Notes: generated by a model not told the origin, from the letters alone. A stretch of 64,000 bases of DNA from Raillietiella orientalis (GCA_036172245.1 JAYWIR010000054.1:558001-622000), one strand, 5' to 3'; positions 6,001 through 60,226 are shown, counted from the first letter of the stretch. Numbers and translations: made by a program.

Positions 6001-7799
6001 CTCTGTCGGAAGCCGTTTGTCTGGCAGCGGTGCCGTGTGCTGCTGGTCGGAAGGGGAGCTTGGGAATCCTCGTTCTCATCTAGCTGCACTGTGGAACTCC
6101 TCCAAGCCTTTCCTACTGATGTTTCCAGAAAAGTTCCTATTCGGCGAAATAACCGTTCGAAGGTATCAGGAGGACGTCCAGAAGGAAAAAAGAATGAACT
6201 ATGCCTGAGGACCAATAGGGATCAGCAGGCGAATTCGAAAAGACTACTGGAGTCACGAAGTGCGGTGGAAGGACGTTTCCATTAGATGACGATCTGTTCT
6301 GCTGGATTGTGAGATTCTGAGCACGAGCTCCATGCGTGTGCTGAGCGAAGAATTGGGCGAGCATTGATCACCCTTCCTTGTGTGTCCTGGTAGCAGAATT
6401 CCCATTTGCATCCCTCAGATGTGGAACTACATCTTAGGGAGTACGTCATTCGGAGTACGATAAACGGAAGTCGAAACAGCTGTGGACCGCAGATGCGAGT
6501 ACGGCTGACGTATCTACAAAAATCTGAGGCACTGCGAATGATCATAGGGAATCCCAGCACCCTTACGAATGTGGTCCGATGACGCCCACATCCGTATGCG
6601 TGATGGTTTGGGCTCGATAAACACAGTTACTTAGAGGAGATCATGAAGGAGGCAAAATCGCCTACACGAAGGAGATTGTCTTTCATCGGTATGGTTCCAA
6701 TTGACGATTAATGAGCGAGCCGGAAGCATCGAAGTTGCCTCATCCGTGGATAAGGTTTTGAATTCAGGATGAGACCATGGATGCTCTTTCGTAAAAAACG
6801 GTCACCATGAGATTTCGTTTGATTGATTTGCGGACTTCGGCAGAGCGGAAATCTGTGGGGCTGAATTCTCGTTTTTTCTTATCTCTTCGATGTTTTTTGT
6901 GAGCTACAAGCTTCATCGAGGCAACAGCCTACTATAGCACCACTCTTCAAGGCAGAATCTCTCTGCGCTGCCGGAACGGTTGTGACGCATACTGAGACGC
7001 TACATGATGCTCTTTAACTGGGAAAATGCGGTGGGCGCTGTCGACAACGCTCATTTCCGAAAGGTGCACCAGAAGACTTGCCTTGCGGAAGAGGCGGTGG
7101 TAAAAACAGTGCTGTTACAAACTGTGGTCAGTTCTCTTCTAGGAGCTTTTGATGTTCTTTCTTTCAAAGCCGTGTGGAAAGCATGAAGAACTCCCTCAAG
7201 GAGCGGAGTGTCCTTATCGAACCGGTTGCTTCCTTGGCTGAATCTGGGAAACGAAATAACATCGAATTTTCGTGCCCGCTGAGCCTCAGAGACACCTCGC
7301 GACCTGCCGCGTAACCCGAGTGAAGGAGAGAAGTACTTGTCACGAGGAATATACCCTGAACAAGATGCTCACCTGCAATTTTCGGGAACAGGAGAGTTCT
7401 TGAAATCGGCAATCCATCTGGTTCACGGATCTATAGAGGTGCTGGTACTCCTGCGTGCATCTGAGAAGATAAGTTGTCGATCATTGGTTCTGGTTCGTGA
7501 AGCTGGAGGACAACATGAGCGACACCAAGCGGCGTTGCGTAACAGGAAGACGAAAGCACCTGAGGCTGAACTCTAGTGTTAGGAAAAGATCAAATTCTGG
7601 ATGAAGAAGCAACTGCAAGGAATTCTTACCTGGCTTTTTCGAAATTACTGTAGCATCCGGTGTATGAATCAACTCCACATCCTTGCTCTTATCTTGATCG
7701 ATTCCAGAGGCATTTACTGCTAAAAATCCTTCTTCATGAAAGTCGTTCCAGTGATGAGCTGATTCTCTGAGTGGAAAAGAGTGGAAAGGGGAGAACGTG

Positions 7800-8172
7800 G
7801 CAACGCGTAGTTTATGCAAATTTGGACAGACAAAGCGAGAAGACCTCTTCTCCTGGTGATCTGCGAAAGATGCATGCGGAGTCTAGAAGAAAGAATCCAA
7901 ACACCCAAGGCTTCGCTCGGCTCCCATACTGGGTGAGGACTTTGTTGGCCAAGACCATCTCTGCGGCTGCTTGCTCTCGGCTTCCTGCCAGGCAGCCGGA
8001 GGTTTCCTCCACTGGACCTATCTGCTTCTGGCTTGGGTTGCGGTGCTGTGCGTGTCTAAAGATGGATGGTCTTATTCTGGCGTCTCGACCGCGTAGGTCT
8101 GTGTCCCTCGTTCCAGTCGACGCTTTCAGTAGACGTCCCGTCTTTGATGGATTTGGACCATCACGCGTAGAG
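7800..8172 (-). mobile_element. Degenerate L1/Tx1-like ORF2 fragment directly downstream of the U2 fragment
   Basis: Translation ...CLAGSREQAAAEMVLANKVLTQY... resembles the post-RT 'LS.xGRxxLxNxxL...Y' segment, also seen near 16620. Heavily decayed; boundaries approximate. Confidence 0.45.
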
Positions 8173-8210
8173 GCTGCACTTTGATCCTAGCCAAAAGGCC
8201 GAGAAGCGAT
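8173..8210 (-). pseudogene. U2: U2 snRNA 5' fragment (nt 1-37/38)
   Basis: The minus strand reads ATCGCTTCTCGGCCTTTTGGCTAGGATCAAAGTGCAG(C). This matches the U2 5' end ATCGCTTCTCGGCCTTTTGGCTAAGATCAAAGTGTAGT with 3 transitions; similarity stops near the branch-site pairing sequence. Confidence 0.9.
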
Positions 8211-11200
8211 TGGAGTAGGGGCTAGGAATTTGCAGGTCTTCGCAAAGCATCGTCTCAATGCCAGAATTTCAAAGAACCGCTCTAAAGAAAACTCAAAAAA
8301 AAAAAAAAAACTGCTCTAACAGACGCTTGGGTTTCCCTCTTTCCCTCTGTGTGCCTTCTAGAATGCTGTCGCGTACCTTCTAATGGGAAGCACGCGCCGA
8401 ACGCAGGTAGTTTCCATTTCCTGCTTAAGGCTAGGTCAGTCCTCAATGAGGACTCTACCCTGGGGGTCGCTTGGACAGATCGCCTGCTGTGTCTTCTTGA
8501 GAACTCACTCTTAGATCTCTTCCCTGCAGCGTCCTCTGTTTGCAGGGAAACATGGATTCTGAGGGTGGTCCCTTTCAGAACTCACCACGTGTGACTCCAG
8601 ATCCACCTTCCTGAACTCTCGCGTCCAGTTATCTTAAGGAAAAAAGAAAAAATTCTCTTCCTCAAGCCCCCCGCTAGATGACCTCGTCAAATTAGGCAGA
8701 TTTTCAGCAGCGAAAACTCAATTCCTGGAACTTGTGGGGGAGGGGGAGGGGAGGGGAGATTTCCCCATTTGAACACCTTCGACACCACACCCACGCGCGA
8801 GGGAAGTTTCCGTGTCGCTCAGCAGCAATCCTTGGCCCGTCTTCTCAACAGCTTCGGTCGTCGTTTTCTTTGCTCGAGGACCCAATCCGCCATTTTCCGA
8901 CAGCATCCCTCGTTCCACAGTTTGTTTCGATAGCGCCATGGCCTCTTCCCAGCTTCCAAGTGAAGAGTTTGAAATCCGGCACGAGGACTTTTCCTTAGTA
9001 GGCATTCTCAGCTATTTCCTCCTCTCAAGCCCTACGGTAATTTTTCACGAAAACCTATTTTACAGAGTGTTTTCCATTTAATAAAAACAGAATCTCCGTT
9101 TCGCCATTCACGCTTGTGCTAAATGGAGTCAACACGCGTTGGAAACTTCAAAGTCAACACCCTTCGATTTCAGCCGATCATAGAAGGTGCGTCAAGCCTC
9201 ACTCTATTTACTAACATGAGAATCTCACATATCTATTAGCATTCCATACATTGATGGCACGCCTAGATAAAGCCTATCTAGAATTTTCAAATACATAAAT
9301 AAATACGGCTGTGTGATGTAAGCACACGGTAGGCCCGCGTATAAGTCGGGGGATACGAATCCTCATTATGCCCTATTAGCCCTATTCCTGGAGGAGGGCT
9401 GAGAAGGTTCAAAGACATTTGCCCCTTCCTTCCTATCTTGTTTGTTTTTATTATTTGTTTGTCATCCTCTCCACCCCGTTCCAGATTTCTAGAGGGACCG
9501 ACTCGCGTGCAGACAGACCCTCCCATTGAGCTTTTTTTTGTTTCTTGTTGGAAATTGCGTTCCCAACTTTTTTATTTTAACTGAATAAGCGCCTCGGCCT
9601 GATCGGCCTATGGATTATCTATCCATGGCCTATGGCCTGTGATTGTATTCATAAAGGATTCTAGACTTATCTTAAATATCAGCAGAATATTCATTATTTC
9701 ACTTCAAAAACAAAAAAGCCGTTCCTTATTGAGGTTAGAAGAAGAGGAAAAAGGGGACCTTTTCTCATTTCTTTGATGTCCAGTCAGTTCGAGCGATTCC
9801 ACACTCCTATCCTCCTCGTTGTCGAAAAAACATGTCTTCTTGCACTATTCTATTCACGGAAAGTTGAATGAGAGAGAGAGGGAGAGGGAAAAAATCAACT
9901 TGCTGAGGTCACACGTTCGTGTTCTTTGCACAGAAACAGCTGGGCCGAGGCTGTTACACAGAATTAAATTCACCACAGTCGTACGGTGCTGAGTTACCGC
10001 GCTATGCAGAGGCTGTCGCGATGTCTTCGCCGCGTTAAACGAATCCGCATGATACGGGGATGGACTGCATTTGATTTAGTAATGGATTAAATAGATATAT
10101 TCGTGTTGGATACAGATGACAGATGTTTTGATTAAATATTTACATAACTTTACATAGAGAGGGCGATTACCGCAAAATGGTTGTCAGAATTTCTCCCTCC
10201 TCGCCACGGGTGCTCAGGTTGATTTACCAGCTGTTTCCATCGTCCGTTTCACTGGTACTTCTTGACGCATAGCATTGGGCAGAAGAACGGATGTCTCTCG
10301 GGAGCTGTCTTCCTCTGTGCTGCAGCCACCACTACAGTGTGGCCCGTCGGTTCGAAGCAGGAAGAGAGAACGAACGTGGGTGCATGGGAGAGAAGAACTG
10401 TGGACTCCTTATCGAGTTTCCCACCAGACTGTCCATTGTCTTACGGCGTTGAAGCCTTAGGGAAAGAAGACGGTCAGCGGCCAAACTTCAGGGAACCTGC
10501 GTTGTTCGCTGGCGTTCCGGTATTCGGGCAAGAAGGAGAATCTTTCGCTCCTCTTGCAGGTGTCTGGTCCTTCGCTCCATCCGTCGGATCTCCGGCTCGC
10601 CCCAGGAAAGTCCAAGGGCGTCTGCGTTTCTTCTGGATGGAGAGGTTGTAAAATCACCGATGGCGGCGGAGGAGGACGCGTAAAGCTGCTCCTCTGTGGA
10701 CGCTCTTGCTATTGCAACTGTGGTGCGTTCCTCCTCCGCCGACTTGCGCGGATCTTCACACCGCTGCTTGGTGCCAGCTTGGCTGCGCTGACACTAGCTC
10801 CCAGTCCGCGTCTCCCAAAGGCCCTTTCGACTCCGCAGCTGCCTTGAACCCCCTGGACATCCTCTTTGCGGGGATACGCCTCCCCATCGATAGTAGAGCT
10901 GGTTCTGGAATGGACGATTCCCTTGCCCCTGCTTCCCGAACCAACCTACGCGGTTGTAGAGCAAGGAGGTGATGCGAGGGGGAGCAGCAGAAGGCGAAAG
11001 CTGCACCTTCGGCGCTCTCCGTGCACGGGTCGCTTCCGAGGGTAGAGTGCAAACTGCTCGCGCCCCAAGGGAAGAAGTTCCTCCTCACGCGAGGGTGGAC
11101 CGCACGCGGTACTGAGGGAACCAGTCAACAGGATCATCTCTGGAAGGATCACGAGAACGAGGAAGTGCAGCTCCTCGTGGGCGCGCGTCTCCCCCGGAAT

Positions 11201-13069: not shown

Positions 13070-14560
13070 GTGGTCACACCGGTTGTCCAATCACGTCCTT
13101 TCCGGTTCTAACCTGCCAGGTTACCGGTTCGCATATCGGTACACCACGGCAGCACTGGGAGAGAGGCGAGCAAAGAAAAAGAAAATAAAAATAAATAGAA
13201 AAACTTGGGAGGGGTACTGGAAGGGGTCGCGTCCTGATAAGGGCGGTCTTCTGCATCCTTTCGAGGATGCCGGCAAGTTCACACTGCATATGATCCAGGG
13301 TGGGGCCATCTCGTTGTCATCCCCGTGAATCGGACTGCAAAGTGGGTGTGGTATCCATGTTGCTGCGCCCTCCGGTGTCGCTCCACCCCCCCCCCCCCCC
13401 CCCCCACAATCCCGCGGATGCAACAAAGTGCTGCTGGGGATGCGGCAGGCATGAGAGCGTCGCTCAGGAAGATGCGCTTTAAAACGTCTCTGGCGTTGCC
13501 TCCAGGGGTACCAAGAGTCGCGACAAAGCGTCCCTAAAGGGGCGGAGGACAACACAGTCCATTAGCATGTGCGGAAGGGACTCCCGCTCCCTGCACCTTG
13601 CACAGTTTGGATCTACACACCCCTGTGTCGAATGATGCCGGAGGGCGTTGCACGGAAGGCACCAGTGCAGCAGCAGCAGCAGTAGCGACGACTCCTGCCA
13701 CTTCAAAGGGAGAGTGCGGCTGTCCGTGAGCACCGGGGGTCACTGCAGATCTTCCACCGGAAGTCCCAGTAGCTCGTCTCGTCGCAACAGTCCTCGAGGG
13801 ATGCACTCGGGGCTTCAACGTCCGTTAGCTGGCCCATCGTCCACTCACCTGGTCCTTTCCTCCTTCCATAGATTCCCATGGAGACCTCCCATCTAGCCGC
13901 GAGGCTGCTGCCCATTTCTTCCCTCAGGGAAGGCTGAGTTACGGCAAGAGAGGGTGATAACCCAGCCCACGCACATTTCAGCAGGTGTTCCAGGAGTTTT
14001 CCGGAGCGAGTAGTTGCCATGAGAACAGCTAAGCAAGCACTGCATCTGTTCCCCGGGCGTGGCTCCTCGTGCTGCGCCCACGTGTATAGGTTGCCCTGAA
14101 ACCAGTCGCCATCATCCGTGGGTCTGCAGGAGATGCAGCGGATGTTCCTCCTGGTGAGCGTGGCCATCTGCTGAAGCTGTGGTCCACAGTGGGAGAGGCT
14201 GCGGCGACGGCGCGCAAGGAAGGACACGAGTCCCGCTCTGGATGAGGATGCTGGCTCCAGGTGGTGCGGCAACCGGGAAGAGGGCTCCTCGTGAAGGTCC
14301 GGCCAGCTTCTGGATCGCTTATTGACCCCATCTGGGGTCTTCGGGCACGGACGCCGGGGCGACTGACTTGCCCACCCGCAGGGATTCCTGGAACTCATCG
14401 CTGATCGGGATTTTCCTGGAGCTTCACACGAATCCCTTAAAGAAGAGAGGCCACCCCGTTCCCCCTCCCGCTCCCTCCCACTTTCCCGAGCGATTCCATC
14501 AATCAGATGTGAACGGCTCTCCCAGGATGATCCATATCCTCGGTCGTCCCAAGCCCGGAG
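13070..14560 (-). mobile_element. Degenerate L1/Tx1-like non-LTR retrotransposon, RT C-terminus + zf-RVT finger + 3' UTR
   Basis: LLLHWCLPCNALRHH...DPNCARCRERESLPHMLMDC is a CxxC-E(S/T)xxH-C zf-RVT motif typical of L1-clade ORF2. Clear homology to 15500-16260, including a T-rich 3' UTR. Confidence 0.75.
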
Positions 14561-15467: not shown

Positions 15468-17575
15468 ATTTATTTAAAGATTAAATAGACATTTATAGTT
15501 TGTGTGGTTGGACTGGTGGTCCAACCACGTTCTTCTGGTATACAACCTGCCGTGTTACTGGTTCGCAGATCAGTGAGGTCCACCGCGGCAGCAGAGAGGA
15601 GGGGCCAAACAAAAGGAAGAAGAAATAAACAAAACAGTTTGGAGGGAGGAGTACCGGGAAGGGATCACAGTCTGCTAGGGGCGGTCCTCTGCATCCTTTG
15701 GAGGATGCCGGCAAGCTTTGTATACATGTCCAAGTGGCGCCATCTGACCACTATCTGCAAAAAGCGAAGAGCGAAGTGGATGGCGTCGCTCCACGCCGCC
15801 TTGATCCCTCGGAGGCAGCAAACTGCTGCAAGGGCTGCGGCTGGCTGCAGGTTGTCACGCACAAAGAGTCGCACAACGTCCCTGGGATTGCCTCAAGGGA
15901 CTCCAAGCAAAGCGTTCCCAAAGGGACCGGAGGGCAACTTAGTCCACTAGCAGGTGCGGGAGGGATTCCCGCTCCCTGCACCTTGCACAGTTGGGGTCCA
16001 CACACCCTGTGCCCAGTAATGCCAGAGGGCATTGCACGGAAGGCCCCAGTGCAGCAGCAGCAGCAGTAGCGACGACTCCTGCCACTTCAAAGGGAGAGTG
16101 CGGCTGTCCGTGAGCACCGGGGGTCACTGCAGATCTTCCAATGAAAGAACCAGTAGCTCACCCCATCGCAGCAGTCCTCGATGGGGGGCAATTGGGGTCT
16201 CCGTGTCCGTTAGCTGGCCCGTCGTCCACCCTCCTCGTCTTTATTTCCTATCGGAGATTCCGGCACTGAACTCCGTTTTGTCGCTGCCTATTTGTACCTT
16301 AGGGAAGGCAGCGCTGCAGCGAGGGAAGTCCTGCCTGCCTCATGGAATATATACCGCACGCTCCAGGAGATATCTTCCGATATCTCCTGGAGATATCTTC
16401 CGATATCTCCTGGAGCGTGCAGTTGTTATGCGCGCAAAGGAAACGTCGCACCTTTTCCGCGCTTGGCTCTGGATCCTCGCCCGCGCGCGGATGGTTTCCC
16501 GCAACCAGGCGCTACCGTTTGCGGGGCGGCACGGGATAAGTACGCTATTCCTGGCCAGCGTGGCCGCCTGCCGAAGGCGCAGTCCGAGGCTGCATGTTAG
16601 CAAGCTGCACCCAAAGGTCACCATCCTGCTCCGTTAGCCGATCTCCGTGCTCGGCAGCGCTCCGGTCAGCTCTTCCGAGGTCAGTTCTTCGAGGAGAAAA
16701 GCCAGAACGGCTGGCCGCGCCCTGCACACTCGGAGGTCACATTTCGACCGCCCTGTAGCTGTAGTTGATCCAGCCGACGGACCGCGGTGTAGTCTATTGT
16801 TCTTGAAACGCTGTCCAATCCTCCCGAAGGCGCGTGCAACCCTTCAAGGTATAGGGGGCAATCCCGAAGGGATGACCCCATGGGTATCGAAAGGGCTCAG
16901 GAGGAAGGAGTGTTTGTTCCTCCTACGCTTGATGGGGGAACCCCGAAGGGAGTCCTCTCCCTGGTCGTCCCCGAGAAGGACCATCTCTTCCTGCTCTCTT
17001 CCTCCTACTTCTCCTTGTCCCTTCCTCCACCCTTCCTCTTCCTCCTGCTCTTCCTCATTCTTTCCAGAGGTAGGCGCTCCTCATTTCTTCCCCGGAGAGA
17101 GCTCCAGGAAAGGATCCGCACCTGGTTTCCTCCTCTGAAGAGAACCGCGAAGGGGCGCTTCCGAATTTCCCTGAGGGTCGCTCCCTGGAGGGAGCGGCGC
17201 GCTTCATGCACTCTGGAGAGGCAGTTCCTTGAGGAAGGGGGACAACCGACTCCATGGTACGCGATTGAGGGTAAATGGGGAAGCTTCATTTTCACGGACG
17301 GAGGCAACCCTGAGAGACTCCTCGATTCCTGGGTTGACCCCACAGGGTCAACTTCCAATCCCATCCAGTCAGCGGGATCATCTGGGGGGTTTCCGGCTTT
17401 TTCCAGTGCCGAATCCGAATGGACCAACCAGCGCCATCCTGAGGGGGGGCACCCAAAACCCACGACACACTCACATTATTTCCTCGCGGTCGACCCTTCC
17501 TTCCCCGGGAGGGATTCGAACCTGCGACGCCTAGTGGTACAGTGCGCGCAGACCGCGGCCGCCCGGCCGCCAGCG
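15468..17575 (-). mobile_element. ~2.1-kb L1/Tx1-like element: tRNA-like head, ORF1 N-terminal region, internal deletion, RT C-terminus, zf-RVT, 3' UTR ending near AATAAA
   Basis: B-box GGTTCGAATCCC at 17522-17511. The 5' body is shared with the copies at 27.4-28.06 kb, 32.5-32.7 kb and 35.05-35.47 kb. DPNCARCRERESLPHLLVD finger at ~15940-16010; minus-strand AATAAA near 15470. Confidence 0.7.
16356..16420. repeat. Palindrome with internal 23-nt tandem duplication
   Basis: GCACGCTCCAGGAGATATC ... GATATCTCCTGGAGCGTGC forms a perfect 19-bp stem; ATATCTTCCGATATCTCCTGGAG occurs twice in tandem. Confidence 0.95.
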
Positions 17576-18079
17576 AGTTGCTTCGGGAGCTCCTGAGGAT
17601 GCGGCAAGACCATTGCTGCGCGTCCCGGGGAGGCGTTGAACCCCTCGAATTTCTCTGCGCAAGGATGACACGCAAAATCGTGAAGCGTTCCACATTTTTT
17701 TGTACACGCTTCGGCTGTACATATACTAAAATTGGGAGGGAATGATCGCGACATTTTTCCTTCCGAGGGGAGGAGCTCCCCTCCTCCTCTTTTCCCTCCT
17801 CTCTTCCGGTCGCCTCCGCAAGGACGTGGAAGCAGCTCCGGAACGTGTCCGGGACAGGGGAGGGGGGCAGGCCGTCATGGCAACGGTAGGGGGAGGAAAG
17901 GATCGGCAGCGAGTCGCGGCGTTCCTGAACTCCGGTCCGCACCCAGTGGGCCCAACGTCGGGCTCGCTGACCATCGGGCCGAGTTCCGACCAAAAAGAAC
18001 TAGTCGCAAGTCACCCACGAACGGCCCCGCGTCGGAGGGAAGAGGGCACACAGTACCCCGGGAGAGCCTTGGAAGGATA

Positions 18080-19575
18080 GCGGGTGCTCGGCAGAACTGG
18101 CAGCTCCCCTGTCGCCGAAGACCACCACCTGCCCCTCAGCTTCAGCTGCTCAAGAAGACTCTGCCGAGAATTTACCTGCCGAGGGGCGTGGTAGGTGACC
18201 TCTCGGCAGAGGAAGACCCTCCCTCATCCTCTGGGCTCTTGTTCTGTGTTGGCACCTTCCGAGGAGGGGGCGAGGCGAACCTCTGTTGCCCGCCCGGCAC
18301 CGTCAGAATCCGCCTCGGGAGGACGCGAGCCCTCGTTATTGCCCGAGGGAAGCCCCTGGAATTCTCTCCTCGTGGAGATCACTCTCTCAGATGGGTCGCC
18401 TCGGTCTCACGGATCCAGCCGTGCTAGTAGGTCCCGCAAGATGGCCTCACGTTCAGAGTGCAGCGCCGCCGCTTCCTCCGCTTGGGGCTCTGGCATCAGT
18501 CTCTTGTGGAGTCGCCCAGACGGATCGCCCAGCAATCGGGGAGGCTAATTCTCCTCAGCCTCGCTGGAGACCCTTCGCCGGTGTGCGTCCATAGCCCCCG
18601 TTCAGGAGCGCGTCCAACACCGCCGGCTACCCCCCGTGGAGGCGCTGCTCCAGAAAAAGAGAGCGTTTCCGGAGCCACCCAGCATCCCCTGCAGGAGTGC
18701 GGTCGGGAAGGAACGAGTTCGCCGTCGGGACCCTGGGTGGCAGCTCCACGCCGTTTTCCGTTTCTCGCATCCCCTCCTCCACGAGAAAGACGGTTTCTCC
18801 TCAATGAGCGCGTGTGGCAACCCTGAGGGGAGTCTGGAGTCGCTTAATACCTGCTGAACGACGAAAAGCGAAGCGGCTGGAAGGCCCGGAGGCTCGCAAT
18901 TTCCCAGGAAGCGTTCGGGGCTCCCGGGGCTATCGCTAGCTCCGCTCTTGGGTCACGTTGCCATCCTGGAGACATCCTCGACTCCTCGGGTTGACTCCTG
19001 AGACGCGCGAGCGTGCAGCGTGGCCTCGCGCGGATCCCCCCTCCGGGAAGGGGGGCAATCGCGGAGGAACCCAGGGCATGGCTTTGCGGCGTCCTTCCTT
19101 TCGGAAAGGCGGGAGGACGGCGAAGCCCCAGCTGGATGACGCAAGAGAGGGAAGGAAAGGGGGGAGGCGGCTGCCTCCCGAAGGACGAGGGCGGAGGTTC
19201 TCTCTCGGACCATGGCAGCTCACTCCGAGTAGCGACGGGGCAGATGGTGGAAGCTGTCCTGACCTGAGCGAGCCGTGGGACCGAGCTCGCTATTCCTCGC
19301 GGAGGGACCCTCCCACCCAGCAGAAGTCGCCGCCATCTTGTGCCCCATCGAGGCACCTCGCTCAGGAGCGCATCTCTGCCGCCAGAGGGGAGGCGGCCTC
19401 GTAAGAACCAAGCGCCAGACGAGGACATCGCCTGCAGCGCTCGAGAACCCAGGAACCGAGGAACGGCAGCGCGGTGACCACCCTCCCCTTGACCTCCCAC
19501 ATCCCTTACCTTATTTTATTTTATTTTATTCTTTTTTCTGTCGCAGCCCCTTCTCGCTCCAGAGCTCTCTCTCCC
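18080..19575 (+). mobile_element. Degenerate L1/Tx1-like RT-to-3'UTR fragment
   Basis: The 3' part (19430-19540: CCC-rich, then TTATTTTATTTT) resembles the 3' UTR of the 13.2-kb copy read in its sense direction. Scattered RT-like peptide remnants lie upstream. Boundaries approximate. Confidence 0.45.
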
Positions 19576-19576
19576 C

Positions 19577-19613
19577 TCGCTTCTCGACCTTTTGGCTAAG
19601 ATCAAAGTGTAGT
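19577..19613 (+). pseudogene. U2: U2 snRNA 5' fragment (nt 2-38)
   Basis: TCGCTTCTCGACCTTTTGGCTAAGATCAAAGTGTAGT matches U2 nt 2-38 at 36/37 positions and ends at GTGTAGT. Confidence 0.92.
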
Positions 19614-20612
19614 CTCCCCTCTGAGAGCTCGATCTCAGCTCCCTCTGTGGGCATTTTACTTCATCTGCATCCCCTCGAGCACTCCGAGAAGACCTTCTCT
19701 TCGGGGAGACCTGAAACGACCCCAGACGGTGGATCCAGGACAGCGGCTGCTCTCCCTTAGCCGCTGCGCTGGACGGGACGAAAGCGGCAGCTGCCTGCAG
19801 GGAGGGCGGAACTTTTCCGGTCCCGTATCCGGAGTAACAAGACCCAGAGGCGGTGGGTGGTCGATGGGCCAGCATACCGACGCGCTTTGCCAGCAGTCCC
19901 TGGGACGGCTGGGAGAGGCTTCCGGACTCCCCATCCGCAGACCCACAGATCGCCTCCAGCATTTACAGGCAGATTCGTGCATCAGCAGCGCGCGGCGTCG
20001 CTCTTTCCGCGCTGGGAGGTTCCCTGGGAAACAAGTGTCGACATCCGCGGTCTTCGCTGGCCGAGGGGAGAGGGGAAACGGAGGTGCCCGCCTCTGGACT
20101 TGCGGCTTCCTCCAGAGCGATCGGCAGCAGCCGCTCGTCCCCTCCCTTCCCTTCCCGACAGCTTTGAGGGGCCTACTGCGGTGCTGGTGTCGACGCGCTT
20201 TCGCCTGCCTGCCCCGATGGCAACTCCCCCCCTTCCCCTTCTTCACGCTCGCGTGTCGGAAACCGGCCGGCGAAGACGGCAGGCCGTGCGACTCGCTCCC
20301 TCTATGATCGGGGAGGAGAATCGAACTGGTCCCCATCTGTAGCACCCGGCCGACCACTCAGACCGTCCTTTGGTCCTCCCTCACTGATTCACTTTTTATC
20401 GCGGGATAACTTCCCCCTCCTCTCCTTCACCCTACCTTTCTGGTCTTCTCGAGCAGCTGACCTGATAGTAGGTTGATTCGCTCCCTCCTTCCGGGATCCA
20501 AGCGTTGCCTAGGAAACAGCATCCTCTTTTGCGTGCTTTCCTGCGGTAAGCGTCCCGGCATGACCTTCCCAGCATCTTCGAGGTTGATACACATTTTTTT
20601 AATCAATAAAAC
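19614..20612 (+). mobile_element. 5'-truncated L1/Tx1-like 3' portion fused to the U2 fragment, ending at AATAAA
   Basis: Remnants ASSIYRQIR and LLRCWCRRAFACL...LACRKPAGED...CDSL fall in the order expected for an ORF2 C-terminus. A pyrimidine-rich tail ends at AATAAA 20605-20610. Confidence 0.5.
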
Positions 20613-23600
20613 CGTGCGGTGAGGAGAGAGTCGGGATGTGACATCCCTGAAGGAAAGGTATCCATCCTCATTGAGGACGCAACTAGGGAGGAAGGAGAAG
20701 AGGGAGGAGATCGAACATAGAATGAAAAAATAAGGATAGAGGTGGACCCACCTCGCGGTGCCGAGCGATCCTCGTGGGCCTGTGACTGGCAGGGAGAGGA
20801 GGGGGAAGAGGGGGTGCGCTTGCCTCCGGACTTCGAGATGGTCAGATCGCGACCGTCCCGAGACACCCTCGGAGCCGACCCCGGCCTGTACGGAACCCGT
20901 ATGCTGCCCCTGCGGCTGCCTCTTGGTGCCAGCAGGCCGCTAGAATGGAAACGGTTGGTAAGCGCGGAGGGGTGAGCGAGAAGAGGCCCCTGAGGGCGGC
21001 GGCATCGGCAACCCGGAGTGCCCCTGATGAGCTCCTGGGACATTCTGTCAGTACGTGAAGAGAAGCTGGTGGACGGCGGGCGCTCCCCTCGGGCACCCTC
21101 CCCTGCCCCATAGGGGCACGGCGACTTCCGGACTGCTCGCTTCACTCCCCAAGAGTGAGAGTCGACAGGGAATTCGTCCCCCTTCCCGCCAGCCCCAGAC
21201 GGCGACGGCGACCATCATGGCAGCTGGAGTGCTCTCGAAAGCCTTCCCGCCGTCTCCTAGCGCGCTTCTAGAAGTGGGTGGGCGGGAACCAGCGGCGGAA
21301 GGAAGAGGGCCTTAAGTGGCGCGCCGAAGGTCATCAGGGAGGACAACGCGCAAGTCTTCAGATGAAGCCGGCGCCTAAAGTCACTCATTGTTGCAGGGCT
21401 GCCGTCTAGATTCCTCCTTTCCCCCCCTTCTTCCTCCTCGTCCTCCTCCTCTCTTCCTTCCTTTTCTTCCTCTTTTCCTTCCTCTTCCTTCTCCTTTTTC
21501 CCTCCTCCTCCACCACTGCTTCCGAGGGTGGGGGTAGGGGGCAAGACTTCCGACGGGACCAGCATGATGGCAGTCTGCTGGTTGCCAAGGGGAAAAACAG
21601 GGACATCGACCAGCGCCCCCGAGATCTCGAAGTTTCCGCGGGAGGTGCCCTGTGGCCTGATCGGTGTCTTCAGCTTCCGGCCGAGGTCCTCAGACGTCTC
21701 GTCTCTCGCGTGCAGAGGCGCTCCGCACTGAGCGAAGAAGGGTCGGCGACACCTGCGGCCCGGTGGGTCACTCTCCCTTGTGGTTCCACTTCCAACCGAT
21801 GCGGGGGGGGATGCGCTCGGACGGTCCTAGAGTGCCGCCTCGCGCTTCGCAGAGTCCTCTCCGGAAGGGTAGGGGGATTCGCCCCACATTGTTTGTCTAT
21901 CCCTGCAGGCTCTGGACTAGTTCAGCCGTCGCGTCTTTGCTGGGTAAGCCTGGCCTCTTCGCCTCCAGGATTCCCTCCAGCCGCTAGGCCATCTCTGCTC
22001 GATGCGAGGCGGGCAAACCGGCCGACAGCGCCGCAGGTGACTGCAGAGGACGGCGACGGGGTGGAGCCGGGAGGGCCATGTCCACGGACGGGCGCGCCTC
22101 CCACAGTCCTCAGAGGTGGGCAGCAGCGCGAGAGACGGAAGCGGGGCGATCAATCTCCTCCCTCGGGACGAATTCCTCTCCAACCCCCTTCGCGAGCGCG
22201 CGAACCCCCGTCTTCCCTTCCGCCCCGATGGCGCCTCCGCTCGCCTCCTGCTCGAGGACCCTTCGGTCCGCCCTCTGTCCCGACACCATCCGGAGGGAGC
22301 GAGTTTCTCTTGACCCCGGCCGAGAACCGCCGACCGGAGCGCACAGCCCAGAATGGGACGGCTGGACGGCTCCCGTCCCTCGGGAAAACCCGGTCCCCGC
22401 ATTGCGGACCGCCACGGAGACGAACGGGGTTCCTTGGCCGGGGTGACCATGAAAACAACTTGCGAAAGGGAAAGGAATGGGTGAAGGGCAGTTGGTCAGC
22501 TTCCTCCCGCAGTCCAGCAGGACGCGGCCCCGGGCGCTTCCTTGGATACTAGGGGTTCCAACTGCCCCTCGGCGCCAGCAGCCCAAGTTTGCCGGTGGGC
22601 GTCTTTCTTTCCACTCAAGAGCTTCCGGCCTCCTCCCGGCGCCTGCGCCTGCGCCGGACGGTCTCCCCCCTCATCCCGGAGGATGCGGCGACGTCACGTC
22701 TCTCTCTGGAAGGGGGAGAAAGAAGGAGAGACTGAAAGATCAAACAAGGGCGGGAAGAAAGCCTCCAAAGGCTCCAGCGGTACTATTGGCCAGTCCCCCT
22801 GCGCTTACGAGGACCACTCGCTCCCCCTTTTTCTCGTGAGGGCATCTCAGACATCAGACTAAGAAATCAGGACAGCGGGGGAAGGGTGGACGGTGGCCCG
22901 CGCACTGGGCCGGCTAACCGCTGGAGGTGGCCCTTACGGCTAGCCAGTCGTCGGCTGTCTCAGTCTTTGCCGGGCCGGGACGGATGGGGAGGCCTGGGAG
23001 AAGCCAGTGGCCCTGGCTGCGCCTGGTCGCGTGGGCATCCTCCTCTTCCCTGATGCCTCCGCCGCCGGCGGGTCGTGGAGGGCCTCGGGCGCGTCGCGCG
23101 AACCAGGAAGACAGTGGGGATGTCGCGACCTGGAACCAGGAGCACCCGTCCGCTCGTGCCTGCCGCAACAGGGGAAGGTTTCCAGGACCCATCGTCTGGT
23201 CCGCTCCCACGACGCACGAGGGAGGACTTCCTCCTGCCTTCCTCCGTCCGTGAGCTGCATAATTCCTAACGCACCTTCCCTCAGCAACCAGAGATGACAC
23301 CCGCGTAGGTACAACCATGGCTTCCGGCTGTCGAGCAGGAAACGGCAGCGGCACCCTCCATTCGTGTAAACCTAAGCCGATCAAAAGCACCCACCTCTAA
23401 GAACAGAGAATTTCCAGAGCCTCTGGGCACTACTGTTCGTGCAACACCCATTCGCGAAGTTCCATCTGCAGCACGATCACTCATGGGGTAACCATGCCAC
23501 TGTCGTCGGAACCACGGCTCCTACAAGCGATTACCAAACCACAAGAAACAGTTCACGACCCTTCCACCCATCTCAATTAACCCTCGGAGCGCTACGGACT

Positions 23601-23649: not shown

Positions 23650-24160
23650 TGGGTTCTGCGAAAATTATCGGCGTGGACCGTGGACTCGCATGTGGGCTTG
23701 GCAAATGTATCTACCTTGTACACGCTACATAAGTTTACACTATCCATGCTGGGAATGGACGCATACACTTAAGTTCCTATAGTTACCTTAGCAACGGCAG
23801 TAATCAAAACTCTATTTATATCGTCTGACTGTTCTCGGTTTCTCTCGGTGTCGTACAGAATTTATTGTATGGTATTTCACCTCTGTGATATCCTAAAAAT
23901 GTGAATGATTTATTCAAATTATAACGATCGATTTGAAATAAATAACGTATGTGTTTCGGAGAAAGCAAACGATTCTATCCAATGTGGTGTGAATAAACAA
24001 TTACAATGGCAACTTGAATCAGCACTTTAGAAAGTCGCTCGGTGCCTCTGATAGAGCGCGCGAAAGATCATTCGGTCCACGGAGGTCGCGGCTGCGACCT
24101 GCGTGCCGTCGACGCAGAAGAGTTTCAGTCTGACGAGCCCCGCACCCAAAGGGTTAACGA
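23650..24160. repeat. Left arm of a ~500-bp inverted repeat (partner 31976-32470)
   Basis: Direct reverse-complement alignment; the core 23830-24125 is nearly identical and the outer part is more diverged. Confidence 0.9.
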
Positions 24161-24315
24161 TACTCTCCTTACTTCTGGCAACAGCATAAACATAAAACGC
24201 TTCTTTATCCATCTCGCATATTCCCAAGTATTAGACCACAACTAACAAAGCTACCTGTAAAAGACATCCCACAAATAATAATAATAAACATTTGCATTCC
24301 TCAATGAATATTACG

Positions 24316-24491
24316 CCTTTCCAGCCTACTAATCACTCTTCTTACATCAGCTCTATTCCAGCATGCCACCCACAACCAACCCCATTATATCACAGCAAAG
24401 CCAAAACAACCTACTGTACCACAAGCTGTCGTCATTCCCGTTAAAATATCTCGGCACCTATACATAGCCATTTCCATACCAACCACCCTTG
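24316..24491. repeat. Left arm of a 176-bp inverted repeat (partner 25463-25638)
   Basis: Reverse-complement match with only two mismatches seen. Confidence 0.95.
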
Positions 24492-25462
24492 CTGAAGATG
24501 CAAAGATAACATCAAACTTCCACCCACCTCCCCATGCCCCCCTTCTTCAAACCCACCCACGAGTCATCAACTGTTGCATGTCTCTTCCTCCCGCTTCGCA
24601 GTTGCCTCTAACGGATGGGTTAACAATGCCTCTATTAGGATTGCGTCAACAATGAACGATTGTTGCCAAGCAGCCCCTCCATTGTTGACCCTATTCCAGT
24701 CGAGGGAGAAACCCCGCGCGCACAAAAAAGCCAAAAGAGGGAAGGGGAGGAACGGTTAGAAAAAAAAAAAAAAACGCGCAATTACAAATCTCCTCCCCCC
24801 GCCTAATGGGGCGCCGACCGATTGGATTGCAGCGGGGCGCAGGCTGGGGAAGGCATGAGAGGCATGAAACTTGCCATGATCGCTGCGAGAAGGGAGAGCT
24901 CTTCCCCTCCTCCTCCTCCTCTCCCCTTGGAGCACGTCGTCCCTCTTCTCCCAGCCGAAGACCCGCAGCCACGAGCGCGGGCATCGCGATCGCACTGCTC
25001 CTTCGACGACCACGACCGCCCAGACGGGCCCGCGCAGCACGGTCGAACGGCTCCTCATAGGCTACGGTGCGATGTGCCGGGACTCAGCGAGAGGCGGCAC
25101 TCCGGACGTGCACTCTGCTTGTGCTCCCTGAGGTTCCCCTTCCCTGGTATCCCGCGATTAGGGCGCGAGATGGATGGAAGCTGCCACGACGGCAGACCGC
25201 CAAATGATGGCACGGCGCGGAAGGCATCCGGCACGTCCTCCAAAGACGCAGGTAGGGGTTTCAGGGGTGGGGCGGGGTGGAGATGCGGAGGAGGAGAAAC
25301 TTTCGTTTCTTTGCCCTTCCGAGAGGGGCTCATTGCCCTCTTCCTCCTCTCTCTTTCCCTCTCTCGGAGCTGGCGGGACCCTGGGGGGTTTCTCGGTGTG
25401 TCGCGCTCCTCGGAAAGTTTAACCCGAGGCATTCGGAGAGGGACGTTCGCAAGGGACGTCAT

Positions 25463-25638
25463 CAAGGGTGGTTGGTATGGAAATGGCTATGTATAGGTGC
25501 CGGGATAGTTTAACGGGAATGACGACAGCTTGTGGTACAGTAGGTTGTTTTGGCTTTGCTGTGATATAATGGGGTTGGTTGTGGGTGGCATGCTGGAATA
25601 GAGCTGATGTAAGAAGAGTGATTAGTAGGCTGGAAAGG
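25463..25638. repeat. Right arm of the 176-bp inverted repeat (partner 24316-24491)
   Basis: Reverse complement of 24316-24491. Confidence 0.95.
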
Positions 25639-26399: not shown

Positions 26400-28060
26400 C
26401 CTGCCTCAGGAGCAACCCTTTCCCTCCCTCTGCGGCACGCCGTCGGAGGCTCTTCCGGATGCGACGTGAGGAGATGGTGCGACGAACTCGTGGGTTTCCT
26501 GCGACCCCGAGGTCGGAGGAGGAAAGACGGGGAAGGAGGAAGGTGTCCCTCCAGAAGGGGATCCCTCAGTGGACCCTGGGTGGTGCGTCGACCTTCCGAG
26601 AAAGTGCCGATTGCTCTAGACCACGGTTCGTTTTCCGATCTACACCCAGGACGTGGTTTCCCTCGGAAACGCCCCCCGGTTAGCTTACCGGCCGCTTCCC
26701 TGAGAGGAGGAGAACAATCCGGGGAGTTTCTTCCTCGAGACCAGATGCGCATTCCCATCTCGAATCGGGTGCGCCTAAAGCAAGTGCGACGGCCGTCCGG
26801 GGACCATGCGGCTTCCTTCATGGACCGATGGACAACGCTCGAGATCATCCGCGTGCATCCCTCGGTTGCGTCCACGGTGACGGTGGTGTCGAAACGGAGG
26901 CGCTACAGAGCTCACCCAGGCGTGAGCGATGGGAGTCACTGCAGAGGACTGTGGCTGAAACCTCCGCTGTCGTTTGGGATGGCACGAGCGAGCCCAGAGG
27001 CAAGGAAAGTAGTCGCTGAAACCCCGTCGGGTGCTGCAGTTCTGCACTCCGGACCACCGCGTAGGAGTCCCCCACTAGGGCTGCCGCTCGGCGCCGACCA
27101 CGAGGAGGCTGTCCTGTCCGCGGAGGGACATGCTTGAGTCCTGCTTCCCCTTTCGTCCTTTCCCGGGCACCCTGAGGATCTGGGAGCAGCCTGGTGAGTC
27201 CAGTTGCATTCCATTTCCGTTGCGACGACCGTCGCTTCCTGTCTACTTCGAGGCGCGAACTTCTCCGGCGCGGTTTCCTTTTCCTTCAGTCTTACCATAC
27301 GCAGGCTTCCCTTGCCCAGGGAACCCGAGACTTCAGGGCGCGCGTAGAGGAGCCGCCGCTTGGCGCTCCCGTCGGTTCCTGTGGCCGGCCGCCGCCCCGA
27401 CCCCGCGCGCTCCATCTCCCTGGACAGCATCCTCCCGGAAGTTAAACTCACACAGAAGAGGATGACATCGGGGCGTGGCAGGCGAGTCCGGGCGCCGCCT
27501 CCGGGGCGCAGGCCTTCGGTTAGGGGGCGACACCGCAGGGACCACCCTACGAATCCGGGAAGGCTCCTGAGGAAGGGGTGTCCTCTCCTTAAAGCTTCGG
27601 AGGGGCACCTCCGCTCTGATTGCCCCCGAGTTAAATCCCGGATGGAGACTCGCCCTTATTCTCTCCGGATGGGGTCGCTCCTCGTTTCCTCTCCGGAGGG
27701 ACTCCTGCTTCTCCTGGTTCCCCTCCGCTGAAGGGAACCCCGAAGCCGGTTTCTTTGAAGGGTCGCTCCCAACAGTCTGGAGGGGTGGTCTCCAGAAGAA
27801 GGCATCAACGCAACAGAGGGTCTACCTCCCTTCCTTCCCGAGGGGGAAGGGGACCCGGTCAGTGAACGGGGGCTATCCGGCTTCCCTCTAGTACAGCATC
27901 CGAATGGGACAACCAGCACCATCCTGCGGGGGGGGAATCGAAACTTCGACGATGGCGCATCCTTCGTTCTTGGAGTTGGTCCTCCCTTCACCTGGTGGGA
28001 TTCGAACCCGCAACGGTCGGGCGCGCGGAGTCTGCGGCTGCCAACGCAGCCCACTGGGGA
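26400..28060 (-). mobile_element. L1/Tx1-like 5' portion: tRNA-like head + decayed ORF1
   Basis: B-box at 28008-27997; shared body with 17575-16760. Near 26805-26770, CCCGGACGGCCG(T)CGCACTTGCTTTAGGCGC gives PGRP-RTCFR(C/R) with one frameshift, resembling the 'PGQPRTCFRC' zinc-knuckle entry of L1/Tx1 ORF1. Confidence 0.6.
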
Positions 28061-28229: not shown

Positions 28230-28420
28230 GGAACAATCATGGAGTCAGCCGGCGGGCGTCCACCAGTGCCGCACCCGAAGCCCACAGTCCAAGCAGCTCC
28301 ATCCCGCAGGGGAAACTCGGAACCCACGACGATCCACCCGTTCCTCGGCGTCGGTCCCCTCCCCCGGGCGGGATTCGAATCCGCGACGCCTGGTGATACC
28401 GCGCGGCCGCCAGCCCGAGT
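28230..28420 (-). mobile_element. Isolated tRNA-like head of the same repeat family
   Basis: CTGGCGGCCGCGCGG...CCAGGCGTCGCGGATTCGAATCCCGCCCGGGGGAGGGGACCGACGCCGAG aligns with the heads at 17.5, 28.0 and 35.4 kb. Confidence 0.7.
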
Positions 28421-31975: not shown

Positions 31976-32470
31976 ATCCTTAACTCTTTGGGTGCGGAGC
32001 TCATCAGATTGAAACTCTTCTGCGTCGACGGCACGCAGGTCGCAGCCGCGACCTCCGTGGACCGAACGCTCTTTCGCGCGCTCTATCAGAGGCACCGACC
32101 GACTTTCTAAAGTGCTGATTCAATTTGCCATTGTAATTGTTTATTCACACCACATTGGATAGAATCGTTTGCTTTCTCCGAAACACATACGTTATTTTTT
32201 TCAAATCGATCGTTATAATTTGAATAAATCATTCACATTTTTAGGATATCACAGAGGTGAAATACCATACAATAAATTCTGTACGACACCGAGAGAAACC
32301 GAGAACAGTTAGGCGATATAATTAGAATTTTGTTTACTGCCGTTGCTAAGTGGATTATAAGAACGTAAGTGTAAGCGTCCATCTCAAACATTGACTTTTG
32401 GCGCGTGTACAATGTAAAAACAATTTGCCAAGCCCTCATGTGAGTCGATGCCGAGAATTTTCGCCGAACA
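31976..32470. repeat. Right arm of the ~500-bp inverted repeat (partner 23650-24160)
   Basis: Reverse complement of 23650-24160. Confidence 0.9.
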
Positions 32471-32504
32471 CATTTGTCCAGAGTAAAGGACATTCTGCAT
32501 CTCG

Positions 32505-32690: not shown

Positions 32691-34198
32691 ACTGCTGGGC
32701 GGCGCCGAGGAAGGCCAGTGTGCGTGCCTCAGGAGCACTTTCGCGGCGGCTTCGAGGACTGCGCGGGAGGGTAGGACGAGCCTCTGGGCTGCGGGGCTCC
32801 TCCGAGTGCTGCAACCTGCGGTGCATCGGCAAAGCAAGGTCAGGCGACCGGAGGGACGATCGAGGAGGCCGCCTGAGAGCGCGCGTTCCCCGGTAGGGAG
32901 ACTGCGGTGGCCGGGATTCGGTCCTCACCCGCTCCCTCCTCCCCTCTCGCCGTGGATGAGCGGACTGAGCGAAAAGAACCGGTCGCCCCTGAGAAAAGGA
33001 AAAGAAACGGGCCGAGGTAGGTTCTGGATCGTAATTAGCCACCACCGGCTTCAGGACGAGCTGCGCCCCTCTCCCACTGCTTTCCGTGGGCTGTAGTCGG
33101 AACCTCCCCTTCATGACAGGGGACCCAACAGCCGAGGAGAAGATCAGAGACCCCCGTGCGAGGGAGCCGTTCCGACTCCTCTTCTAAGGTCCACCAGGGG
33201 AAGACTCTGCGGATCGTGTGCGGCGGCGTAGCTGCGGATGCAGGAGGGAAGGGGGGGAGCACGGTCGACGTAATCGGAGAGGCGATCGATCCGCTCACGG
33301 CCTGCACGTTCCCCTCGACTCGCGCGCAAGCATCTCACCGCGTTCACAGGTTCGGTGTGACCTTTCCCACCGCCGTGGAGGCTCCGGTCCTCACCGGGCG
33401 TCGCCCCGAGGCGGAGACGCAGGGAAACCGCTGGAGGGCCGGGCAGGAGAACTGCTCCCTCCCGAGAGACGGGGCTGCTTCGCGTGCTGCCACACAGGGA
33501 TTCCAGGGAGCCCTTCGGCGGTGGCAGCTGCTGAAATCCTTAAAATCCTCCCACGCAGAGATGCCGGATGCCTCCGGCACGCGGGGCGCGAGCTCTTCCT
33601 GATGCCGCTGCCGCCACCGCATGGAAGCCGGGCAGGCCTCGATCCACCTGCCAGCAGATCCGGCTGGAGGGGTCGGCAGCACAACGAACCCGGGAACTTG
33701 GCAGCAGGGGCTGCTGCATGAGGAGTCGTGCCCCGCCCGTCCGTCGTGGAAGATGCGTTCCGATCCAGTTCGCCCCCGCGGATCCTTCCGGGTCAGGGAG
33801 CGTTCCTTCCTCAGAGAGGGATGAGAAGGGTTCGAACGCAAGCGGCCGCGATTCCAGAAGGGTTCATCCCTTTCTCCTTCTCTGGAAAAGGAAGCGCGGG
33901 AAAGGGAATGTTAGTTCCACTCCAGAACCACTCCCAGCGAAGGACACTGAGCTGGCACCTCACACGGTGCCTCGCTGCAGTTTTGCGCACCGTCTACGCC
34001 TGGAATGCAAAGGGTGAGCCTCACGGACGGCGCCACCGGCACCCACGTTCAAGGGAGAGTCGCACGCGCGCGCTCGGCTTCGTGACACGCGGCACGCTAA
34101 CGGCTCCGGGGTCAACGCGCTCCCCACGAAATGGGGATCACGCTCCCTTTCCCACTTCCCGAGAGGACAGCCCTAACGCTCGTTCCTTCCAAGTTCAG

Positions 34199-58410: not shown

Positions 58411-60226
58411 CTACTTTGTATGGATTGAATACTGGTATGCATGAAATGGGCTGGAGTAAGGAGACAAGTGCCATCGATCTCCAAATAATTTCCGGAAACT
58501 GGAGCGATTCGATATTCAAATTTCAAATGCAATTTCTACATACAATGTGCGGATGCCGGATTCCGATCGTTTCCAGGGGGCATCATCTGGTTCTCTGGGC
58601 AAAGGCCCCTGCACAGCTGCTTCGACTTCACCAAGCACAGGCGACTCACCACTGCTGACATGAGAAACAACCCTCAAAAGTGTCCGACTTCTCACTGGCT
58701 TGTCTCCTGAGACTGGAAACGTTCCAAATCCTCTTGCAGTTCCTGAACACCCAGTTCACTTGGATGCTCTTGAATGATATCTCGAAGTTCATCAAAGGAA
58801 AAGCAAGTTTGTTCTGCATCAGCAGGATTCTGATCTCTCTTCACAGGAGTGAATCCCTAATCCAACACTGAAGAGTTTTGACACACAGCATTTACTGACC
58901 TGATTTTGTATCACATCCTCCCTATCCTTGTGCAACAAGCTAAGTTCTTTGTTCAAAAGGTGGCACTGGTGAATCTGCTGCTGCAGTTGAAGTTGTAAAG
59001 CAGCTTTCTCTTCAATGAGTATCTTGGCTTGATTCTGAAAGATTTGTTTCTTGCGTCTTATCTCTTGCTTCTGTTGAATGCACTCAGACAAACTCAGCTG
59101 CAACTGAATATGGCTGTCAGGCAAAAATTCGATTCCTGTGTTCATCCCAATGCAAGCAGGAATGGGATGAGCCATCATTGCGAGGACAACTTACATTCTC
59201 AATAGCTGAAGTTTGCTGCTCTATCTGTTCCTCCAATTTATGAATTTGCTCCCTCTGCCGTTCTCCAGAAATTTGCAAGTGGACCAGGGCTTCCATATCC
59301 ACATCCCTATAGTGAACTTCTGTAGCATAGAGCTTTGCCACATGCTACAGCATCGAACCTTGACTTTGGCCCTTCCTTTCTTCCAGTTCCTGAAGCAACT
59401 TCCTATTCTCAGTCTGGAGCTTCTCCATTATGGCCATTAAATCTTGGGTCTCTTTTTTCCAGTTTTCCTCCAAGCTGTCCAATTCCTATCACCAGAACTG
59501 TGAAAATCTCACCAGTCCTATCAACAATCAACAACATGAATGATCCTTAATCATTCATATTGTTGACAATTCACATTTTTCTTTGGATTAACAATATCGG
59601 ATAGACAGGATTTACAGCAGCACGTCCTTGAAATTCTAAAATTTATTAAAGAAAAGGGCTTTCACAGCAATCATTTGACTTTAAAGTGAAAACTCTTACG
59701 TATCACTGCGCTAGAGAAAAATAAAACCTGGAAAATCCACGGACGTTTCGATTTCTGGAGCACAACCTCTCCAGGAATTTCAAACAATTCTGTAATAATA
59801 GCATTTCAAAACCACTTTCGATCTACAATGTGATTATAGTTACGTTACACCGCCTACAGAATGCAATTTACAACTGATGTACACAACATCCATAACTGTT
59901 TGACCAAGCATGAATTCAATTAAAAAGGTATTACTAACCTTCTCAAGTCGTTTACACGTTTCCGTTTTTTCATCCTTTTCCTGCTGAACCCTCGACAACT
60001 TTGTTGTAAGTTCTTGGACAAAATAGTCTTCTTTTTCGTGAAATATTGCAAATGATTCCAACTGCTCCAAAATAAGAATAACTTTGGGCATGAGGTTTTT
60101 TATGCATGTTTCTCCATTCTCCTCTATCATAAAAACGATATCTTTGCCTATATCGGCTGCAATATCGTACACGTTTGCTACTGTTACATGAGGGTACAAC
60201 TGTGACTGATCCAGCAGCACTTCCAT
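58411..60226 (-). CDS. RILPL: RILP-like protein (Rab effector/dynein adaptor), 367 aa. Exons 60226-59939, 59485-59359, 59319-59195, 59103-58900, 58856-58696, 58654-58544, 58498-58411
   Basis: RH1 motif VTVANVYDIAADIGKD...G...IKNLMPKVILILEQLE, then coiled coil ELDSLEENWKKETQDL and RH2-like FSFDELRDIIQE. The C-terminus VQGPLPREPDDAPWKRSESGIRTFFRKLF resembles arthropod Rilpl. GT-AG introns with consistent phases. Confidence 0.92.

Follow-up and report, generated by a model that had tools for sequence, protein, structure and literature searches.

Two short pieces of the U2 snRNA, copies A and B, lie on opposite strands of the window, by which we mean the whole 64,000-nucleotide stretch of DNA analysed here. 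A probe made of the first 23 nucleotides of U2 has two matches in it at up to 3 mismatches, compared with none in 100 dinucleotide shuffles: one at 8188-8210 (-) with no mismatch (copy A), the other at 19576-19598 (+) with 2 mismatches (copy B). The same two places are the sole matches in the window of a second 23-mer probe (U2 nt 15-36). With the Rfam U2 model, searched at E<=10, the pieces reach 30.4 bits (E 0.013) and 32.1 bits (E 0.0053), the gathering score of the model being 46; at gathering thresholds, Rfam has no match in the whole window. The features of the two loci are the following.

8176-8210, minus strand: copy A, U2 nt 1-34 (35 nt with the AAA-type extra A), from probe match, Rfam and sequence.
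8215-8223, minus strand: upstream direct repeat of copy A, AGCCCCTAC, followed by the 4-nt filler TCCA (8214-8211) and then by U2 nt 1.
8167-8175, minus strand: downstream direct repeat of copy A, AGCCTCTAC, overlapping U2 nt 35-43 (5 of 9 positions agree) and representing either target or microhomology.
19579-19612, plus strand: copy B, unambiguous U2 nt 4-36 (G12>A), from probe match, Rfam and sequence.
19570-19578, plus strand: upstream direct repeat of copy B, TCTCCCCTC, whose last 2-3 bases equal U2 nt 2-3.
19613-19621, plus strand: downstream direct repeat of copy B, TCTCCCCTC, overlapping U2 nt 37-45 (5 of 9 positions agree).
19562-19630, plus strand: 8-bp perfect inverted repeat around copy B, GAGCTCTC (19562-19569) and GAGAGCTC (19623-19630), adjoining both direct repeats.
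7981-8010, minus strand, and 19776-19804, plus strand: patch of ~30 nt with ~77% identity, at +200 from both U2 starts, with small palindromes (GGAGGAAACCTCC; CTGCCTGGCAG / GGCAGCTGCC).

Copy A begins with the very first nucleotide of the snRNA. Its 5' end is ATCGCTTCTCGGCCTTTTGGCTA, with U2 nt 1 exactly at 8210 (-), and the minus strand read from there downward is ATCGCTTCTCGGCCTTTTGGCTAGGATCAAAGTGCAGCCTC; the exact start given in the preliminary description is thus borne out by a stretch of 23 nt without mismatch that no shuffled sequence (0 of 100) reproduces. In copy B the 5' end falls at U2 nt 2-4 (19576-19579), a nearly complete snRNA 5' end, and the U2-like stretch extends over 19576-19616 when the bases shared with the repeats are included. 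The pieces differ from the consensus at just 1-2 of ~35 positions, those of copy A being nt 24 (A>G) and nt 34 (U>C) of the Rfam consensus.

On the 3' side, U2 likeness is lost at nt 34-41 in both copies, and both read [C/T]CTC there; the earlier observation that similarity ends at the same place in each, with CTC after it, holds as well. According to the structure line of the Rfam U2 consensus, both breakpoints are located inside the unpaired stretch that follows stem-loop I. Nucleotide A38 is missing from copies A and B, which have C instead, and this places the U2 break no later than nt 37. The sequences right after the U2 pieces, CCTCTACGCG… and TCTCCCCTCTG…, are without an A-rich tail.

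Both copies read GATCAAAGTG, with one A beyond the Rfam consensus. S1 Fig of PMC4640811 shows GATCAAAGTG in the U2 of fruit fly and C. elegans as well, and GATCAAGTG in the sequences from Acanthamoeba, Phytophthora and crocodilians. As the extra A is native in fruit-fly and C. elegans U2, it offers no evidence for a mutant master copy common to both pieces, and we rejected it as a sign of one mutant source. Most simply, the extra A would belong to the normal U2 of this species, and judging from the sequence a U2 of the GATCAAAGTG type hints at an invertebrate host. A 16-mer and a 13-mer around the extra A had no match in a full-text literature search.

The window also holds a permuted U6 at 17648-17735 (+), in which the 3' part (~nt 58 to the end, with the T run) comes first and is followed, with no spacer, by U6 nt 1-34 (GTACACGCTTCGGCTGTACATATACTAAAATTGG). 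Its 3' part (…CGCAAAATCGTGAAGCGTTCCACA), which we take to be of the invertebrate type, scores 39.2 bits with Rfam U6 (E 1.2e-6; gathering score 44), and the stem of its 5' part presumably carries compensatory changes relative to vertebrate U6. Such a junction of a U6 3' end with a U6 5' end would result if, during reverse transcription, the enzyme made an end-to-end template jump from one U6 RNA to another. No clear repeat flanks the permuted U6: we found only GGGAGG, 20 nt away.

When the window is compared with itself, the loci of copies A and B are alike over 46 bp only, 8170-8215 against 19571-19616, at 87% identity; these shared heads have CTCC before and [C/T]CTC after. Local alignment of the 400 nt upstream gives a score of 20 (null 18.7+-2.3; reached by 69 of 200 shuffles), and with nothing in common there, the copies do not appear to share a promoter element. 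The 800 nt downstream score 23 against a null of 20.8+-2.1, a value attained in 39 of 200 shuffles. The second-best ungapped match between the downstream kilobases falls on the main diagonal (rank 2 of ~1560 diagonals), at +200..+221 from U2 nt 1, where a 100-nt window has 43% identity and the background 25+-4.6%. This is the +200 patch listed above. It has no further occurrence in the window and probably arose by chance, and it is the sole observation favouring a shared body.

That observation bears on one reading of the two heads, in which ~40 nt of U2 would belong to a non-autonomous, SINEU-like retroposon and be followed by a fast-evolving body. The weak collinear similarity at equal distance from the U2 start speaks in its favour, as do the identical ends of the two heads and the crocodilian precedent described in the cited part of PMC4494074. 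However, the heads are 88% identical while the bodies are not significantly alike, a combination that neutral decay would not give. A tail and an outer target-site duplication (TSD) are lacking, other copies of the patch do not occur in the window, and the inner 9-bp repeats would be left unexplained. We therefore consider a SINEU-like family highly improbable.

These inner repeats would set the limits of what was inserted. Each U2 piece is bracketed by a 9-bp direct repeat of its own, exact in copy B and agreeing at 8 of 9 bp in copy A; between those of copy B lies GCTTCTCG…GTGTAG, which is U2 nt 4-36. Of the 18,244 positions with the same geometry in a window-wide null, 0.23% have an exact 9-mer and 2.4% one with 1 mismatch. 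Dinucleotide shuffles of the local 60-nt flanks reach the observed repeat in 9 of 5000 cases for copy B and in 50 of 5000 for copy A, p-values that are optimistic, the search windows having been set post hoc with the repeats already seen. The shortness of the repeats and the C/T-rich DNA around them further limit these statistics, which are supportive, short of decisive.

The repeats agree with U2 nt 35-45 at 4-5 of 9 positions, of which only 1-2 nt are contiguous at the 3' junction, a point that tells against the reading favoured below. The presumed cleavage sites are TTCCT/AGCCCC in copy A and CTCTC/TCTCCC in copy B, unlike the TT/AAAA type of L1. We rejected the 'CTC' common to both copies as part of one element, since it is accounted for more readily if two C/T-rich target repeats of similar sequence begin there.

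In copy B, the inverted repeat adjoining the direct repeats is informative about the state before insertion: with the insert removed, the flanks make one small palindromic site with the duplicated 9-mer in its loop. We infer from this split palindrome that the DNA up- and downstream of copy B was formerly continuous. An 8-bp inverted repeat between the upstream flank and the head of copy A was dropped, being close to chance expectation in 111 nt.

As the flanks are unrelated and a separate direct repeat brackets each copy, the two pieces reflect independent events. A recurrent mechanism, which the preliminary description had argued for, is upheld on these grounds; what finds no support is its proposed product, a LINE capped with U2(1-37/38), for protein-level searches gave no LINE homology, and neither an A-tail nor an outer repeat was found within 7-8 kb.

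The LINE assignment had rested on the DNA downstream, with 7800-8172 taken as LINE-like and a LINE zinc finger placed after the copy at 19.6 kb. Neither was recovered. Pfam detects no family at E<=1 in the three read-through frames each of 6671-8172 (-) and 19614-23005 (+). In the 145 window ORFs of at least 130 aa, it finds no reverse transcriptase (RT), endonuclease or LINE zinc finger; apart from one sub-threshold hit, its only matches are to a homeodomain and an RH1 domain. Among the proteins of 68-233 residues that were searched, no relatives at E<=0.01 emerged for ORF 7484-7882 (-), with 8 word-sharing candidates, or for ORF 7815-8186 (-), with 11. For the 235-aa ORF 19600-20304 (+), 1,835,955,588 representatives yielded 0 hits at E<=0.001. 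These tests work at the protein level and are blind to untranslated (UTR-only) parts of a LINE, and some frames only were set against large databases.

Signs of a longer insertion are absent at the DNA level too. The 8 kb that follow copy A contain no A-run of 8 or longer, and the DNA downstream of copy B contains a single one, A15 at 24760, 5.2 kb away. We rejected this A15 as the tail of a U2-headed LINE, given that the two arms of a separate 180-bp inverted repeat enclose it and that it comes with no outer repeat. No outer direct repeat (at least 10 exact, or at least 12 with 1 mismatch) starting from either upstream flank was found within 7 kb downstream, and, T-run hits aside, no flank of either copy has a second occurrence in the window.

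The U2 pieces themselves are so little changed that a coding LINE segment inserted together with them should still be readable. In addition, the 9-bp repeats hug the ~35-40-nt U2 piece itself, which argues that the DNA downstream is pre-existing target. Most likely, then, what lies beyond each U2 piece is old target, with no co-inserted LINE. The proposed junction with a variable LINE breakpoint gives way to what looks like an ordinary truncated U2 retropseudogene, the contrary case that the preliminary description had itself named.

Two readings nevertheless place a retrotransposon downstream. In the first, the RT of a LINE, while copying a LINE, SINE or mRNA template, would have switched onto U2 at nt ~37-40 and run to its 5' end; the downstream DNA would be a 5'-truncated retro-copy with too poor a coding signal to be recognised. 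Template-switch chimeras of U6 with L1 and of U5 with L1 (Group IV) have reportedly been described by Buzdin (2002/2003) and Garcia-Perez (2007). As in these, the snRNA 5' end is joined here, from nt 1, to unrelated sequence.

Internal template switching is documented for U5 and U3, with 3'-truncated products and some switches at positions 36-48, in the relevant part of PMC4476161, and crocodilian SINEU and Tx1-Mar elements are described in PMC4494074 as having repeatedly gained short U2 heads, and U1 heads too. The tail-to-head junction of the permuted U6, 1.9 kb upstream of copy B, suggests that template jumping does take place in this genome, and fragments consisting of UTR alone would be invisible to protein tests. 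Against this, neither LINE nor RT homology turned up in the Pfam and ORF relative searches, and 7-8 kb of downstream DNA yielded no A-tail and no direct repeat enclosing a larger insert. Neither downstream piece recurs elsewhere in the window, and with the U2 pieces changed at so few positions a coding LINE piece should have stayed readable. Unlike in Group IV, no downstream LINE, SINE or processed mRNA is recognisable, and the repeats flank the snRNA piece alone. A Group IV origin strikes us as rather improbable.

In the second, true U2 genes would have been broken at nt 38/39 by Utopia (in arthropods) or Keno (elsewhere), elements variably truncated at their 5' end. A fixed U2 breakpoint combined with a variable LINE breakpoint is the signature expected of them, and a U2 of the AAA type suits an ecdysozoan host. 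According to the account of these elements in PMC4640811, the downstream U2 begins at nt 39 and nt 1-38 are left upstream; the U2 break seen here is 1-4 nt from that insertion site. The same account gives arthropod Utopia no TSD and variable 5' junctions, so that 9-bp flanking repeats would be unexpected. Several further findings disagree with such an origin: U2 nt 39 to the end is found nowhere in the window even at E<=10 (Rfam, 1-30000 and 29000-64000), the downstream DNA shows no Pfam domain, RT included, A38 is lost, and the upstream 400 nt do not appear to hold a common promoter element. Within the window this reading is largely refuted, and we regard it as extremely unlikely.

We favour, with moderate confidence, the view that copies A and B each represent an independent, 3'-truncated tailless (Group III) U2 retropseudogene that arose by internal priming. 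Their anatomy fits that of heavily 3'-truncated processed pseudogenes of snRNAs: they begin at the cap site and break off in an unpaired region, with no tail and with short duplications. A reverse transcriptase, likeliest one derived from a LINE, would have acted at a staggered chromosomal nick, priming inside mature U2 and away from its 3' end. The cDNA would start in the single-stranded stretch after stem-loop I, at nt ~34-41, in the branch-point-recognition region, perhaps aided by a few bases of pairing between U2 RNA and the nicked target. The enzyme would then run to the capped 5' end of U2, the resulting ~35-40-nt cDNA would be sealed into the target, and fill-in of the stagger would produce a 9-bp target-site duplication on either side. 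The same breakpoint would recur as only the stretch at nt ~34-41 of U2 is accessible for priming, and internal priming thereby accounts for the fixed U2 breakpoint without a special junction mechanism.

The works of Denison and Weiner (1982) and of Schmitz (2004) are reportedly those cited for the snRNA pseudogene class and for the name 'tailless retropseudogenes'. In the sections that define them, Group III processed pseudogenes of snRNAs (the old Class IV) are equated with these 'tailless retropseudogenes' (Doucet 2015, PMC4476161; Noll 2015, PMC5322556). Their truncations are described as "grouped in specific short segments", nearly all of them single-stranded, with flanking TSDs and complementarity at the 3' junction, and human U2 copies as mostly of Group III, U2 being the snRNA commonest in that form (as stated in the corresponding passages of PMC4476161). 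Likewise, the text of PMC5322556 on the subject has tailless retropseudogenes cut off at defined positions that coincide with single-stranded regions. The copies in the window share with this class the complete or nearly complete 5' end, the single-stranded 3' cut, the missing A-tail, the short duplications and the recurrent breakpoint; some similarity between target and RNA at the 3' junction (4-5 of 9 positions, only 1-2 contiguous) may be a further common trait.

They depart from it in two respects, which together make them unusual: their target sites are C/T-rich and not of the L1 type, and their host is probably an invertebrate. The sites here (…CCT/AGCCCC, …CTC/TCTCCC) contrast with the TT/AAAA type of L1 in the published sets. 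A cleavage site of this kind lowers the case for an L1-like enzyme as the maker and leaves internal priming untouched. As to hosts, the U2 here is of the fruit-fly and C. elegans type (GATCAAAGTG), whereas PMC5322556, where it treats the distribution of the class, lists it only from therians, the anole and maize (eight copies derived from U2), with none found in chicken or platypus. The two comparisons made above also have their limits: no retrotransposon, U2 3' part or common upstream promoter is found here that would recall Utopia or Keno, and although SINEU and Tx1-Mar (in the crocodilian cases presented in PMC4494074) resemble our copies in a short U2-derived head on unrelated sequence, repeatedly gained, ours have no shared body or poly(A) tail and belong to another host group.

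The unusual target sites also speak for a route without a LINE endonuclease, in which break repair captured a short U2 cDNA or RNA and the repeats came from microhomology repair. The 4 filler bases in copy A suit it, as does the place of copy B in the loop of a small, possibly fragile palindrome. Two events with equal 9-bp repeats and similar CCCCT-containing targets look more like the staggered cut of one enzyme, though no evidence here separates these routes. Break repair is, in our estimate, distinctly improbable.

It is possible, if unlikely, that a non-L1 retrotransposon with CCCCT-type targets makes tail-less, internally primed snRNA copies in an invertebrate, having produced the two U2 copies and a template-jumped U6. 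In what they report on non-L1 LINEs, Doucet et al. (PMC4476161) saw only chimeras and no Group III copies, which also tells against the favoured reading. A bolder variant would make the U2 heads the mark of a SINEU-like family of U2-capped retroposons. Tail-less snRNA retro-copies have served as a marker of "relaxed" L1 activity; if true, the non-L1 reading would extend such 'relaxed' template choice beyond the therian and anole L1 lineages.

As genomic fossils, U2 retro-copies truncated at recurrent breakpoints are well described, and the present case is by itself of small importance. The main gain is a negative one, namely that the "U2-capped LINE" junction represents no new mechanism of chimera formation. 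Some value would be left to the non-L1 target sites should the host, which is probably not a mammal, prove to be an invertebrate; another LINE clade or break repair could then be the maker.

Several further features were recorded in the window. A run of A16 at 8295-8310 (within 8279-8319, +) is situated 85 nt upstream of the U2 start of copy A; the bases AGAAAACTC that precede it and the run itself have GCTCTAA at either end, and 8279-8319 may represent an opposite-strand poly(A) retro-insertion with severe 5' truncation. A near-perfect long palindrome occupies 16352-16424 (+) and is built of GGAGATATC/GATATCTCC units; its match to mir-M7 (34.3 bits, gathering score 91) was set aside as due to chance.

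Three repeat pairs were found, none with a protein domain: an inverted pair of 180 bp with 98% identity (24316-24495 / 25459-25638), ~1 kb apart and foldback or MITE-like; an inverted pair of 513 bp with 89% identity (23650-24161 / 31976-32472); and a direct pair of ~810 bp with 73% identity (13070-13876 / 15504-16261). A repeat with GGGATTCGAACCTGCGAC is found at 17480-17560 (-), with related pieces at 27868-28015, 28300-28405 and 35337-35446. ARAGORN detects no tRNA genes in the window. We take GGGATTCGAACCTGCGAC to resemble the reverse complement of a tRNA T-arm, and the repeat at 17480-17560 could be a tRNA-derived SINE.

Two exons with recognisable protein domains were identified, and their domains, RH1 and homeodomain, mark the window as DNA of an animal. 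That at 59843-60328 (-) encodes an RH1 (RILP homology 1) domain (Pfam E 5e-17); a word-indexed search gave it no relatives among longer proteins, and its neighbours in the ESM Atlas are RH1 clusters from Chordata and Arthropoda. The other, at 33722-34501 (+), encodes a homeodomain (Pfam Homeodomain, E 3.9e-15) that appears SHOX-like by reading of its residues. It ends at the usual intron position and lies inside a block of 55-63% GC that spans ~10-44 kb.
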